A DNA stretch of 64,000 bases from a virus: the IMG/VR virus record IMGVR_UViG_3300007708_000003, positions 34,361 through 98,360 of that record, one strand, 5' to 3'. Under the pieces are notes generated by a model. The model was not told the origin of the DNA. It saw nothing but the letters and a program-made list of their open reading frames with translations, and did not search any database. Shown here piece by piece: positions 34,126 to 61,051 of the stretch; positions within the stretch are counted from its first letter, which is position 1; each line of letters opens with the position of its first letter. A program made the position numbers and the translations under genes.

Positions 34126-37086
34126 TTATAAGAAAAATTCACCAATTCTATTAAAAAATAAAAAAGAACCAGTACCACTAGCTGTAAAAGTACCTGTGTA
34201 AGTACTATTTACAGTACCATCTGAATTAAGTACATAATAACCTTTTGACACATTTCCTGTACCTAAGTAACTTGTTAAATATCCTGCAAATAAAACACTA
34301 CCATCATTAAGAACACTTACATCATATCCACATCTACCTATTGTAGAAGAAGAAAAATCTCCTAAAACTGTTGTTGTGTCAATAGTAAATGATGTATCTT
34401 TTGTTCCATCAGTATTAAGTTTAATTAAACCATTTGCTCTATTTGTAGTATCATCTGAACTATTATAATATGCAAAATTACCTGTTACTAAAATACCATT
34501 TACATGTGGTATAATTCTTTCTACACATACTCCATATTGTAGTAAAGTTCCAGACCCATAGTCTTTTGTACCATCTCTAAATGGTCTAAACCAACCTGAG
34601 TTAATACCTAAACTAGCATTTGGTTTTAAGAATCCTGTACCTGTATCAAATTCTAAAACTGGAGCAATGTCACCATTTTTTTTAATTTTAACAATGTTAT
34701 ATGCATTTACTCCTCTATAAGTATAAAAAGCACCACCTGCATATATATCTCCTAATACATCAACATATATTGTTTTTACTATTGAAGATGCATTTATAAA
34801 TCCAGTAGTAGTATCACGTACAGATTGTTGTACAGAAAAACTTGTTGATAAAGCACTAAATGTAGGATCTAGTGTTCCATCAAAGTTAAGCCTTACTAAG
34901 TTAAGTACATTAACAAATGTACCAGTAATATTTGTATAAGCATTAAATGCTCCTGCTACTACAATTTTTGTTTCAGTAGGATCTGATTCGTCAAATTGAA
35001 TATCATATACACATGGAGGCATACTAGCAGCTGAAGTATAACGTAATCCAGAAATTCCTATTTTAAATATAGTTTGAGGTATAATTGCTCCTGTAGTTGC
35101 GTCTAAACAAACAAGATTTGCTGAACATGGAATACCTTTATATGATTGAAAGCTACCTCCTACAAATATTCTATTTGAAGCTTGATGGTATTTTATTGCA
35201 CGTACAACAGCAGGAGTAATTGTACCAGTACTTACTCCAAATCCTTGATTAATACCTGATCCTGGATTAAATGTTCTATTTATTTGACCAAAAAATCTTG
35301 TAGATGAACTAGTACAATTTAATTTAATAACACCTCCTGACAAATATGAACCAGCTTGATCTGTTGCACCAGCTCCTGCTAAAGTACCTATAAAAATACC
35401 ATCATTAGCAAGTTCAGTAGTATAAATATTTGTATTATTTGATGATGGTACACTAAATCCTAAAACAGGTTTTGTTGTATTAAGATTTCCTGCAGAACTA
35501 TCTATTTTTAGCATACCTGTTTGAGGTGTAGCTATGTTACCCATAATAAATGATAAAGCTTCACCATTACAAAATTGAGGATCAGGACATGGAGGTATTT
35601 CAATAGTAAAATTTGTAGGATTACTATTTAAAATTCCACAATTTGTAGTAATAGAACCATTGTAAGTTACACCACATACCCATGGAAAACTAAATGATGG
35701 TAATGAACTTGTTAATGATGTAGAACTACCACCTGTAAAACCATATGTTAAAGTATAACCTACTGCACCAGGTAAAGCTGCAAATGTTACAAGTACATTA
35801 ATACCAGATATAACTACAGTAGGAGAAAAAGGTTGTGGACAATTTGGTTCACAACATGATTGTTGTGTAGAAGGTGATGGTTCACATATCCCATTACCTG
35901 AAGCTGGTGTAGTTATAGTACATGTACGTGTTTGAGTACAACCAGAACCTGGTACACATGGATCAGGTGTCCAAGCTGTACAAGTCCATACACAATCAAC
36001 ATCTGGTGGTTGTACACACCCTCCTCCTAATGTAGATGTTATCATTGCAGAAACTCCAGGTTCAGCAGCTGTCCACTCAGCACTTGATGTGCTAATAGGA
36101 TTAAATGTATCTGTATCTAAAGTATATCCTAAAATATAAGATATTCCAGTTTGATAAAAATGTTGCCATCCTTCAACAACATCATATATAACCTTCATAT
36201 TATATACACCATCTGGTGTAGTAATAGTCCACCAATATTCAGGAAACCCTGAGTTTCCTAAGTATACTGGTGCAACAGATGTATAATAAGTAAAAAGTTC
36301 AGGATCATCACCGCCACTATTTGTTATTAAAATTGTATATTGAAAACACATTTTTACAGCAGGACATGTTGATATTTGTGAGGAAATTAAAAAATCGTTA
36401 CATAACTCACAATTGCTCCATATTTGAGTAGTATTATTACTTATTGGTAAATAGTTGCTATTATTATTTAATGTTTGATATCCTGCTGCCATAGTACCTA
36501 AAATAGGTGTTATATGCCATAAAAGAGTAACATTATTATACCATACATAAAGATCAGGAGCACCACAAATAAATTCTAATAAATAATATGGTTTCTCATT
36601 AAGTATACCTACAGGTGATGTTAATATTTGTGTAGGATCAGGTTCTGATTCACACATATAACTACTAAAACTAAAACATACATCTTTAACATCACACACT
36701 TTATAATCAACTAAAGATCCACATTCAGCACCACCATTTGCAGCAGGTGTAATTACAGTTCTTGTACGTGTACTTCTACCACATACTAATAACTCATCTT
36801 CATAATAACATTCACATGAACTCCATGGTCCCCATGCACTAACTACACAGTCTTGTGGCACTTGTTCACAACAATCACATATAGGTAAAACATTATTAAA
36901 AATACTTAATACTTCTAAAAAAGTCATTCCTGATTCTATACCTAAACATTTAATATTGCTACCTGTATATATTACACAAGCAGCATTATATTCATTACCA
37001 CATAATCCTGACAAATCTGGAAGTGGTAATGGTGTTATTGTACTAGGACACGGTGAACAATCGTTGCAATTATTATTTGGATACAT
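34126..37086 (-). CDS. Cys-rich fibre/adhesin: two thrombospondin type-1-like repeats, FN3-like domain, delta-60-type beta-propeller repeats (986 aa)
   Basis: DCVVSAWGPWSSC..RTRTVITPAANGGAEC; KIVVAGAF..LVRLNFDGTLDPTF; LIKLNTDGTKDTSF. Confidence 0.65.
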   Translation of the reverse strand: MYPNNNCNDCSPCPSTITPLPLPDLSGLCGNEYNAACVIYTGSNIKCLGIESGMTFLEVLSIFNNVLPICDCCEQVPQDCVVSAWGPWSSCECYYEDELLVCGRSTRTRTVITPAANGGAECGSLVDYKVCDVKDVCFSFSSYMCESEPDPTQILTSPVGILNEKPYYLLEFICGAPDLYVWYNNVTLLWHITPILGTMAAGYQTLNNNSNYLPISNNTTQIWSNCELCNDFLISSQISTCPAVKMCFQYTILITNSGGDDPELFTYYTSVAPVYLGNSGFPEYWWTITTPDGVYNMKVIYDVVEGWQHFYQTGISYILGYTLDTDTFNPISTSSAEWTAAEPGVSAMITSTLGGGCVQPPDVDCVWTCTAWTPDPCVPGSGCTQTRTCTITTPASGNGICEPSPSTQQSCCEPNCPQPFSPTVVISGINVLVTFAALPGAVGYTLTYGFTGGSSTSLTSSLPSFSFPWVCGVTYNGSITTNCGILNSNPTNFTIEIPPCPDPQFCNGEALSFIMGNIATPQTGMLKIDSSAGNLNTTKPVLGFSVPSSNNTNIYTTELANDGIFIGTLAGAGATDQAGSYLSGGVIKLNCTSSSTRFFGQINRTFNPGSGINQGFGVSTGTITPAVVRAIKYHQASNRIFVGGSFQSYKGIPCSANLVCLDATTGAIIPQTIFKIGISGLRYTSAASMPPCVYDIQFDESDPTETKIVVAGAFNAYTNITGTFVNVLNLVRLNFDGTLDPTFSALSTSFSVQQSVRDTTTGFINASSIVKTIYVDVLGDIYAGGAFYTYRGVNAYNIVKIKKNGDIAPVLEFDTGTGFLKPNASLGINSGWFRPFRDGTKDYGSGTLLQYGVCVERIIPHVNGILVTGNFAYYNSSDDTTNRANGLIKLNTDGTKDTSFTIDTTTVLGDFSSSTIGRCGYDVSVLNDGSVLFAGYLTSYLGTGNVSKGYYVLNSDGTVNSTYTGTFTASGTGSFLFFNRIGEFFL

Positions 37087-58461: not shown

Positions 58462-58528
58462 TTATGTATAAAATGTTGGTTATTTAATGCAAAATGCATG
58501 TTTTTGTATAGAATACTATACATTCTTG

Positions 58529-58886
58529 TGGAGGTGAGGAGAATCGAACTCCTGTCCAAACCATGATCAATAATACAATTTATACAGCTTATAGGTAATC
58601 AACTCAGTTGATGACTCCACCACTCTATTTAATCTAACAGAGAAATCTTTATGGCAATTTTTAAAGTCTTGAGCCAGTGTTTGACTGAATTAATCTAGGC
58701 TGCTACAGCAACTTCTTCTCTAATCAAAGAGAATACTTTGTTCATGTTAGCTTCTACTTGTGCGTTGTCTCCTAGAGATACTACACCAATTGTGTTTTTG
58801 CCATTTATTATATTCACCTTAGTTTACAGTTATCTCTCTGGCTGATTGTATTACTTACTAATGACCTGTCAAAACCAGTCACCCCC
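58529..58886 (-). ncRNA. ssrA: tmRNA (transfer-messenger RNA)
   Basis: 5' GGGGGTGACTGGTTTTGACAGG and 3' GGACAGGAGTTCGATTCTCCTCACCTCCA; 7-bp acceptor with G3.U alanine determinant; T-arm; internal tag ORF ending VAVAA-TAG; 358 nt; CCA not encoded. Confidence 0.93.
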
Positions 58887-59085: not shown

Positions 59086-59099
59086 ACTTTTATCTTTAG

Positions 59100-59170
59100 T
59101 TGCGTGGGAGGGAGTCGAACCCTCAGCTCTGGAATATGAGTCCAGCAAGTTACTATTACTCTACCACACT
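59100..59170 (-). tRNA. tRNA-Met(CAT), initiator-like
   Basis: AGTGTGG/CCACGCA acceptor with 1:72 mismatch, A11:U24 pair, CTGGA-CTCATAT-TCCAG anticodon arm, GAGGG-TTCGACT-CCCTC T-arm. Confidence 0.85.
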
Positions 59171-59336: not shown

Positions 59337-59633
59337 CTACCAATAGATTGCTATATCACCTTCGTATATCATCATTCTTAAAGCACCATCTACTTCAATA
59401 ATTTCTGATGATTGTAATGCATATGTAGCAACATATACTTTAGCACCTACTACAGTATTAGGATTTGATACATCTGCACCAAGAGCATATATCTCTAAAG
59501 AAGTCCATCTCTTCATATCTTCTGCATCTAACATTGCTTTTGTTTCATCAGATAATTCAATTGCACTTTCTTTTCTTACAGGTTTAGTAATCAATACTCT
59601 CTTTCCTGTCAATTCTTTAAAAGGTGTTGTCAT
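59337..59633 (-). CDS. GroES-like co-chaperonin (98 aa)
   Basis: FKELTGKRVLI, mobile-loop-like ESAIEL, VVGAKVYV, IEVDG..MIYEGDI. Confidence 0.7.
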   Translation of the reverse strand: MTTPFKELTGKRVLITKPVRKESAIELSDETKAMLDAEDMKRWTSLEIYALGADVSNPNTVVGAKVYVATYALQSSEIIEVDGALRMMIYEGDIAIYW

Positions 59634-60310: not shown

Positions 60311-60360
60311 ACAAATATATAAATAAAAGTTTAACTTTTACAAATTTATTATATATTTGT
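60311..60360. promoter_or_regulatory. Divergent Bacteroidota sigma-A promoters
   Basis: Minus strand: TTTG (60341-44), 21 nt, TATATTTG (60312-19). Plus strand: TATATTTG (60352-59). Central near-palindrome AAAAGTT-T-AACTTTT. Confidence 0.75.
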
Positions 60361-60384
60361 AAAATAATTTAAAAACAAACAAAC

Positions 60385-60585
60385 ATGAAAAAGTTATTTC
60401 AATATGCAGTATTACTGCATTCTTATGACAAAGACAAACTGTACTTAGATTCTAAACTTATTATTGCGCCAACAACTGCTTTGGCTAAATCTGAAAAAGA
60501 TCTTATATTTAAAATCACAAGAGACATTCCTACAGAATTTGCAGAGAATCCTGATAATATACAAATACTAGTTAGAAATTTTTAA
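60385..60585 (+). CDS. Small protein (66 aa); probable -1 frameshift extension to 60749
   Basis: ORF track; ends in A AAT TTT TAA. Confidence 0.8.
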   Translation: MKKLFQYAVLLHSYDKDKLYLDSKLIIAPTTALAKSEKDLIFKITRDIPTEFAENPDNIQILVRNF

Positions 60586-60652
60586 ATGTTCCAGACTGGT
60601 CTAATACTAATGGTACTGTATCCTTTAGTAATTCTGGAACTAATAATAGACC
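60576..60652 (+). promoter_or_regulatory. -1 programmed ribosomal frameshift signal (slippery heptamer plus pseudoknot)
   Basis: A_AAT_TTT at 60576-82; stem 1 60588-95/60633-40; stem 2 60598-603/60647-52. Confidence 0.75.
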
Positions 60653-60745
60653 TTATGATCCAAGAGAAGCAATGTATAATAATACAATTACTAATAACAC
60701 AAGCAACAGTTATAGTCTAACTGAAGCATTAAATACAGCAACATT

Positions 60746-61051
60746 ATGAAAATAGAAGTTTTAAAATTCTACGCCAATTGGTGTGGACCATGTAGAGCAC
60801 TTTCTCAAAGATTAGAAGGTGAGAAACTAACAGAAATAAATGTAGATACAGAACATGAAACAGCTATTAAGTATAGAGTAAGAACAATCCCTGTTCTTGT
60901 CTTTTTAAAAGATGGAGAAGAAGTACATAGAACTACTGGTCTTATAAGTAAGAATGAGTTTGATCTTATACTAAATGAGATCAATGATGAAAAGGATGTA
61001 GACAATATAGAAGTGACAGCAGAAATTGTAAAACCTAATACAGAAGAATAA
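60746..61051 (+). CDS. Thioredoxin (101 aa)
   Basis: FYANWCGPC active site; YRVRTIPVLVFLKDG. Confidence 0.92.
   Translation: MKIEVLKFYANWCGPCRALSQRLEGEKLTEINVDTEHETAIKYRVRTIPVLVFLKDGEEVHRTTGLISKNEFDLILNEINDEKDVDNIEVTAEIVKPNTEE

Follow-up and report, generated by a model that had tools for sequence, protein, structure and literature searches.

A probable pseudoknot-stimulated -1 frameshift cassette at the end of a small uncharacterized gene in a crAss-like phage and its relatives

A small uncharacterized gene of the phage analyzed here very probably ends in a -1 programmed ribosomal frameshift (PRF) cassette that is stimulated by an RNA pseudoknot, and by sequence comparison this layout is kept in about 60 related phage sequences. 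The gene lies in a stretch of 64,000 nucleotides (the window; positions 34,361 to 98,360 of IMG/VR record IMGVR_UViG_3300007708_000003), to which all coordinates refer. Its zero-frame ORF, taken from the ORF list, encodes the 66-residue short isoform (60385..60585, + strand) and ends AGA AAT TTT TAA. The slippery heptamer A_AAT_TTT (60576..60582, +) stands in the zero-frame register, with AAU (Asn) in the P site and UUU (Phe) in the A site, and is abutted by the zero-frame stop TAA (60583..60585, +), which together with the following AT (60586-87) makes up a 5-nt spacer, TAAAT. Because the -1 frame contains a TAG at 60573-75, it opens exactly at the heptamer. From there it extends for 55 codons and a TGA (60582..60749, +), translating as LNVPDW...NTATL, so that the 66 residues plus this tail make a 121-residue trans-frame isoform with the junction ...VRNF-LNVPDW... 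and the predicted tryptic junction peptide NFLNVPDWSNTNGTVSFSNSGTNNR. A first-pass annotation of the DNA had proposed a -1 PRF with a pseudoknot and isoforms of 66 and ~121 residues; the positions that it gave for the heptamer, spacer, stem, pseudoknot, and -1 ORF are all correct to the base, and its reading gains strong support from the conserved layout, the covarying heptamer and stems, and the open -1 frame described below.

The virus genome is a single contig of 98,360 bp with 30.6% GC. In a PHROG comparison its terminase, portal, and major head proteins matched phrog_6681, phrog_6547, and phrog_11589, respectively, and since the terminase is also 24-26% identical to the terminases of crAss-like and Flavobacterium phages, we classify the virus from these comparisons as an environmental crAss-like phage. 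The features found that are typical of Crassvirales-like phages are the crAss-type terminase, portal, and major head proteins, a size of ~100 kb, and low GC. The host is probably a member of the Bacteroidota. Nearly all of the window is occupied by one leftward structural module (terminase, portal, and major head genes), and the 66-residue protein is encoded at a divergent junction by the first gene of a rightward operon. A consensus scan placed a promoter-like site, TTTACA-17-TAAAAT (60337..60365, +; 10/12 matches), ahead of this operon, which is weak evidence as the probable Bacteroidota host has a different promoter type. To the left of the divergent junction ARAGORN identified a phage-encoded tmRNA (58528-58886, -; tag ANMNKVFSLIREEVAVAA) and a tRNA-Met (59099-59170, -), both 1.2-1.9 kb leftward of the 66-residue gene. 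Comparison of the region, the 66-residue protein, and the tail with GenBank phages by blastn and tblastn gave no match.

The 66-residue protein belongs to a family that comprises 268 clusters at 50% identity, as determined by a profile search of 1.84 billion cluster representatives (E ≤ 1e-3). Its N-terminal domain is confidently predicted (AF2 pLDDT 90.7) to consist of a beta-hairpin followed by a helix and a closing strand. There was no Pfam or PHROG match for the protein and 94 of its relatives, and no Pfam, PHROG, or PDB relatives were found for either half (domain or tail), PDB profile searches being empty. Foldseek searches of PDB and BFVD and VIA wide returned generic beta-alpha-beta folds only (best Z 6.4, eL20/PurS-like), and the hints of RNAP-epsilon (Foldseek probability 0.94, TM 0.53-0.57; ESM Atlas 0.76) were likewise too weak for use. 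The first-pass annotation had stated that the gene encodes neither a tail assembly chaperone nor a capsid protein, and we concur: the PHROG and Pfam comparisons link the protein to no tail assembly chaperone family, and its gene is not located between major tail and tape measure genes, but adjoins the gene for a thioredoxin and sits opposite the leftward structural module. Our best guess is that the product is an early, non-structural protein whose long form may be tethered to a partner via the motif at the end of its tail; for the roles of the two isoforms we can only infer.

On the window alone the case for frameshifting is only suggestive, and its real significance lies in the comparative data. 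The string AAATTTTTAR is not rare, being found twice in the window vs. 3.9 expected occurrences, and the local minimum free energy (MFE) of the single sequence is only modestly better than that of shuffles (z-score -1.9). Dinucleotide shuffles produced a match at the right spacing in 0.5% of cases for stem 1 and 3.5% for stem 2, and in 0/200 for both stems together. Scans of IMG/VR and metagenomes yielded 59 homologous AT-rich loci, 47 of which are unique across the site (scans queried with P0060, P0109, and P0065 gave zero loci). In every one of these 47 the stop of the small ORF (TAA or TAG) directly follows a Phe codon, TTT, and in 43 of them the X_XXY_YYZ pattern is held, with X switching in step (A, C, or G). 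The heptamer takes the forms A_AAT_TTT, C_CCT_TTY, and G_GGT_TTT across homologs, with the preceding codon matching in each case (AGA AAT TTT at 38 loci, CGA/AAA AAT TTT at 4, CGC CCT TTT at 2, and AAG GGT TTT at 1). Four loci have non-canonical P-site codons (G_CTT_TTT, G_GTT_TTT, T_CCT_TTT, and C_TCT_TTT at L045, L047, L048, and L065) and still carry T_TTT followed by the stop. The choice of arginine codon is informative: CGC makes up 0/61 of the other Arg codons in these ORFs and 16/865 in this genome, and this rare codon is chosen precisely before CCT, where C_CCT_TTT requires it.

The same signal is visible in the protein family. The close homologs of the 66-residue protein (n = 31; 57-72 residues) all end in VRNF except for one that ends in KVF, and among the 150 family representatives listed, 131 have a C-terminal Phe, with RPF in 104 and RNF in 8. 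We consider this near-universal C-terminus (RPF/RNF, then stop) to be largely a protein-level shadow of the slippery site, that is, to exist because of the recoding signal and not because of protein function. It had been anticipated in the first-pass annotation that homologs ending in RNF or RPF would do so on a slippery heptamer with an open -1 frame and covarying stems, and this is what the loci contain.

Downstream of the heptamer, the 5' arm of stem 1, GTTCCAGA (60588..60595, +), which is part of a covarying RNAalifold consensus, pairs with the 3' arm TCTGGAAC (60633..60640, +), its exact reverse complement. Stem 2, the pseudoknot stem, joins GGTCTA (60598..60603, +) in the 5' bulge of the hairpin to TAGACC (60647..60652, +), 6 nt past stem 1, and all seven of its aligned pairs covary (7/7). 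An inner hairpin (60605..60630, +), formed by TACTAA (60605-10) and TTAGTA (60625-30), is present in the MFE fold, and its three basal pairs covary. The arms follow the H-type order S1a-S2a-S1b-S2b, in that bases of the hairpin loop pair with single-stranded sequence farther downstream. Coaxial stacking of stems 1 and 2 would call for a junction of 0-1 nt, and here a 26-nt hairpin and 3 nt intervene between the 5' arm of stem 2 and the 3' arm of stem 1. Since the inner hairpin occupies this junction, the fold is an elaborated three-helix pseudoknot. There is no Rfam family for the structure, and no terminator-like signal was found.

A search of each locus placed the start of the helix 3-7 nt past the heptamer in 46 of the 47 unique loci, at 5 nt in most, and stem 1 had a shuffle p ≤ 0.05 in 32/47 loci. 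The arms of stem 1 differ widely between loci (e.g., GTTCCAGA, CTTCCTTTGT, ACTCCATCAT, GTCCCAAG, TGTCTCAC, and TCCTCCAAGATC). A second helix between the 5' bulge after stem 1 and a segment 3-9 nt past stem 1 recurs with changed sequences, as GGTCTA/TAGACC, TTGGTC/GACCAA, TTTCCAA/TTGGAAA, and GTCCAA/TTGGGC, and in other loci as CCAACA/TGTTGG, TGTAAG/CTTACA, and TACCAATA/TATTGGTA. For the covariation test, 32 loci were aligned by sequence only with MAFFT (alignment A2), and 10 pairs of stem 1, 7 of the pseudoknot stem, and 3 at the base of the inner helix were scored. In this alignment 87.2% of cells are paired, vs. 33-49% after a shift of the partner by 1-3 columns, and 19 of the 20 pairs (stem 1, pseudoknot stem, and inner helix) have two-sided changes. 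The covariation score of 0.547 compares with ≤ 0.164 in controls and was reached by 0/500 shuffles. For the pseudoknot stem, 83-85% of cells are paired, and stem 1 was recovered independently by RNAalifold. In the most distant AT-rich and in the GC-rich relatives the pseudoknot stem is weak or not demonstrable, and a hairpin at equal spacing remains.

Each of the 47 unique AT-rich loci has a -1 frame that runs on without a stop for 45-73 codons (45-86 with the further loci considered below), vs. a median from the same point of 12 codons in the zero frame past the stop and 8 in the +1 frame. Toward its end the tail carries a conserved motif, (S/T)(S/A)N-x-Y-(S/T)-L-T-x-A-(L/S)-N, which is located 9-13 residues before the C-terminus and ~50 nt or more beyond the RNA structure. 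Here it reads SNSYSLTEALN, and the corresponding peptide TSNSYSLTEALN (60699..60734, +) is found once in the 98-kb genome. The Tyr and Leu of the motif are invariant in 45/45 loci, with five Leu codons in use and serines switching between AGY and TCN. Because these residues are kept through synonymous and AGY/TCN switches, the comparison shows amino-acid selection on the motif in the -1 frame. The central part of the tail, which is rich in Ser, Thr, Asn, and Gly, evolves fast and almost neutrally (substitutions by codon position 122:90:140). An AlphaFold model from the tail alignment is disordered (mean pLDDT 61) except for a short C-terminal helix at LTEALNT.

Several weak matches to the tail were not taken as homology. 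The match to phrog_28929 (E 0.007) was found for only 1/46 tails, and those to the tail-fiber PHROGs phrog_9942 and phrog_18345 (E about 1e-3) for 3/46, via a GNVGIGT-like stretch. A stretch GNVGIGT(S/T)xP, common in tail-fiber-like proteins of Bacteroidota, is present in the tails of L014, L017, L018, L046, L039, and L008. A 44-codon hydrophobic zero-frame ORF whose ATG comes right after the TAA (60586-60720, +) is probably an artefact of composition and was rejected, since in homologs a stop closes this frame after a median of just 12 codons.

The layout was kept in 9/10 further loci, 8 of them GC-rich, and likewise at L068 and L069. The RPF-type DNA that we examined represents one clade, made up of nine contigs of 52-67% GC, seven of them viral and two from MAGs. 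In this GC-rich clade CGC CCT TTC/T precedes the stop in eight contigs (6 viral, 2 MAG) and the remaining one reads CGC TCT TTT TGA; all have a hairpin 3-6 nt past the heptamer and a -1 ORF of 48-86 codons, and the tails end in a related motif (e.g., ATYMTASS and TSTYMMAN). Since contigs of 52-67% GC carry the same layout, the cassette is much older and wider than the crAss-like group.

In a few relatives the tail is fused in frame to the domain (P0041, P0044, P0051, and P0058, as well as P0057, P0092, and P0137), with, for example, ...YTLT... at the end; in P0058 the fused tail has just 14 residues and ends YDYTLTKTL. These relatives support the fused architecture as a real protein. All of the fused forms are singletons, among which homopolymer assembly errors may be included. 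One 61%-identical relative (L067:1201-1413, +) ends IIKKF-TAA, and its -1 frame shuts after 7 codons; an unrelated gene comes next, in the +1 frame, and the tail is fused in frame in P0044, a relative of L067. The L067 lineage appears to have lost the tail or never to have had it.

The tail's TGA (60747-49) overlaps the ATG (60746-48) of the thioredoxin gene (60746..61051, +; Pfam PF00085, E 9e-14; phrog_22) as ATGA, from which the first-pass annotation had suggested that frameshifting ribosomes couple to and tune thioredoxin expression. This suggestion is borne out in part: the tail stop overlaps the next start as ATGA at ~15/46 loci and as TAATG at 4, many loci have a 60-100 nt gap or an unrelated gene, and thioredoxin is the next gene in only ~10 loci, being a conserved neighbor in the closest relatives only. 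As the overlap and the thioredoxin neighbor are confined to some loci, coupling is better regarded, from these comparisons, as a lineage-specific consequence of tight gene packing and not as a conserved purpose. Neighbors vary between loci, and so the cassette travels as a self-contained unit. Small proteins ending in ...DDVPF or ...DSIPF adjoin the cassette in the GC-rich loci L060 (1789-2307, +) and L064 (191-442, +); these ends resemble the acidic C-terminal tip of single-stranded DNA-binding protein, with no match in Pfam, and hint at a replication or early-gene neighborhood. A homolog of the window's 98-residue leftward gene (59337-59633) is present downstream, on the cassette strand, in several distant loci, ~500-800 nt past the slip site in L017, L018, and L019 and ~1,100-1,400 nt past it in L023, so the two small genes tend to stay close despite rearrangement.

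From the conserved signals we infer slippage itself and its efficiency as follows. Most ribosomes would read AAU-UUU and, on meeting the UAA next to it, would terminate and release the 66-residue folded domain. A fraction would be stalled by the structure that starts 5 nt past the heptamer, in which the 8-bp stem 1 would be stacked on the inner hairpin and the 5' bulge paired with the 6-nt downstream segment. The two tRNAs would then slip from A_AAU_UUU to AAA_UUU, UUA (Leu) would be read next, and translation would continue for 55 further codons. The resulting 121-residue product would consist of the same domain, a disordered ~40-residue Ser/Thr/Asn/Gly linker, and the peptide SNSYSLTEALN, which is most likely a docking motif on a flexible tether. 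The 'fixed ratio' of the two isoforms proposed in the first-pass annotation is an assumption.

One alternative, which we rate as rather unlikely, is that a single tRNA slips at a 'shifty stop', with the peptidyl-tRNA-Phe in the P site moving from UUU to U_UU while a slow stop codon occupies the A site, in which case the isoform ratio would depend on termination efficiency and not be fixed. It is favored by T_TTT_TAR (or TGA) being the sole feature in every locus, the non-canonical L045, L047, L048, and L065 included, and by the stop abutting the Phe codon in 47/47 unique loci, in agreement with the 131/150 representatives that end in Phe. However, the covariation of the upstream codons (AGA AAT, CGC CCT, and AAG GGT, with the rare CGC) is predicted by tandem slippage and unneeded for a P-site slip, and a pseudoknot set off by a 5-nt spacer is how sites of tandem slippage are built. 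Both routes yield the same protein, so sequence alone cannot separate them. Transcriptional slippage was rejected, there being no long homopolymer and the GC-rich relatives reading CCCTTTC.

The remaining explanations dispense with ribosomal slippage altogether. That the conserved element acts only as RNA, in mRNA stability or in control of downstream translation, with the open -1 frame as a by-product, would account for the strong covariation of the stems and for the conserved 'LxxPxWS' at the N-terminus of the tail, which overlaps the stem arms and could be an RNA constraint. We find this very improbable, as very divergent sequences keep 45-86 codons of the -1 frame free of stops where the other frames shut after ~10, the C-terminal motif lies ~50 nt or more past the structure and changes by synonymous codons, the genes that follow are not the same from locus to locus, and a terminator was not found. 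It is no more credible that the downstream frame represents an independent small gene which is not fused to the first and is translated either from its own start or by termination-reinitiation, although the overlap of its stop with the next start is ordinary for coupled genes in phages and TTG or GTG is found at tail codons 1-5 in some loci. No locus has an ATG, GTG, or TTG upstream of the slip site in the -1 ORF, and nine have none anywhere in the tail ORF (the tail in the window has its first at codon 30), for which reasons independent initiation is not credible; a separate gene would also leave unexplained why the frame opens exactly at the heptamer, why in-frame fused homologs exist, and why the heptamer covaries. 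The chance of a sequencing or assembly error, or of a decaying pseudogene of a once continuous 121-codon gene, is negligible: the A3T5 run is indel-prone and a few database proteins are continuous, but the same frame break falls on the same base in ~60 assemblies that are independent of each other, stem from different projects and platforms, and encode proteins of 50-80% identity, and GC-rich relatives have no homopolymer there (CCCTTTC).

Because the stop abuts the slippery Phe codon in nearly all members, slippage would compete directly with release factor. It is conceivable, though we consider it distinctly unlikely, that the cassette is a regulated switch and not a fixed-ratio device, with putative roles either as a reporter of termination state or through a long form that docks on an adaptor. 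In the first case, the short:long ratio would report the termination/translation state of the host during infection. As regards the second, there is a loose likeness between the terminal peptide N-x-Y-x-L-T-x-A-L and the tmRNA tag of Bacteroidota (..NNYALAA), which is speculation on our part, and the putative adaptor on which the long form might dock would be one of host quality control or a protease; the phage's own tmRNA is 1.5 kb away.

Tail assembly chaperone genes account for nearly all annotated frameshifts of tailed phages, and capsid genes for a few; in the PRFect training set 2,397 of the 2,476 annotated phage PRF genes are tail assembly chaperones (PMC10885494). The cassette would add a further class of phage PRF, in a deeply conserved family of small, non-structural, uncharacterized proteins that spreads from 30%-GC crAss-like phages to 67%-GC phages. 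Both stems of this bacterial-virus frameshift pseudoknot covary cleanly, and it is absent from Rfam, Pfam, and PHROGs. The 121-residue product is missed by gene callers in every genome that carries the cassette, and its conserved terminal peptide would offer a direct handle on the protein's partner. Our literature searches found no description of this frameshift; new here are the covariation test of both stems, the argument from Arg codons, the relatives with a tail fused in frame, and the finding of the cassette in GC-rich phages.

The G/GT frameshift of phage lambda is the -1 frameshift of a tail assembly chaperone, with counterparts in long-tailed phages. The cassette resembles it in the -1 slip on X_XXY_YYZ near the end of a short upstream ORF, in the production of a short and a C-terminally extended protein with a common N-terminal domain, and in the conservation of position despite sequence divergence. 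It differs in that its gene is unrelated, that the protein is far smaller (66 and 121 residues), that the stop abuts the heptamer, that it has a covarying pseudoknot, whereas lambda is not known to need a strong downstream structure, and that its place in the genome is not the one between the genes for tail tube and tape measure; to our knowledge, a crAss-like podovirus has neither of these genes. Phage T7 gene 10A/10B, a capsid -1 frameshift, shares with the cassette a U-rich slip site that involves the Phe codons with which the ORF closes, and a C-terminal extension of ~50 residues on a minority of molecules, but the cassette is not in a capsid gene, lies in a non-structural operon, and differs in heptamer and stimulator. 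The bacterial-type -1 PRFs of the IS3-family OrfA/OrfAB genes (IS3, IS150, and IS911) and of Escherichia coli dnaX are similar in their heptamer, 5-8 nt spacer, and hairpin or pseudoknot stimulator. In contrast to their A_AAA_AAG-type sites and often an upstream Shine-Dalgarno-like stimulator, the cassette has X_XXU_UUY sites and no evident upstream element, and its product is not an enzyme fusion. Three-stemmed frameshift pseudoknots are the coronavirus class (PMC11262651), and the fold described here is alike in having an H-type topology elaborated by a third helix. The position of the extra hairpin differs, however: in coronaviruses it lies in a long loop between the 3' arm of stem 1 and the 3' arm of stem 2, whereas in the cassette it is at the stem 1/stem 2 junction, between the 5' arm of stem 2 and the 3' arm of stem 1, and the stems of the cassette are shorter and AU-rich relative to those of coronaviruses.
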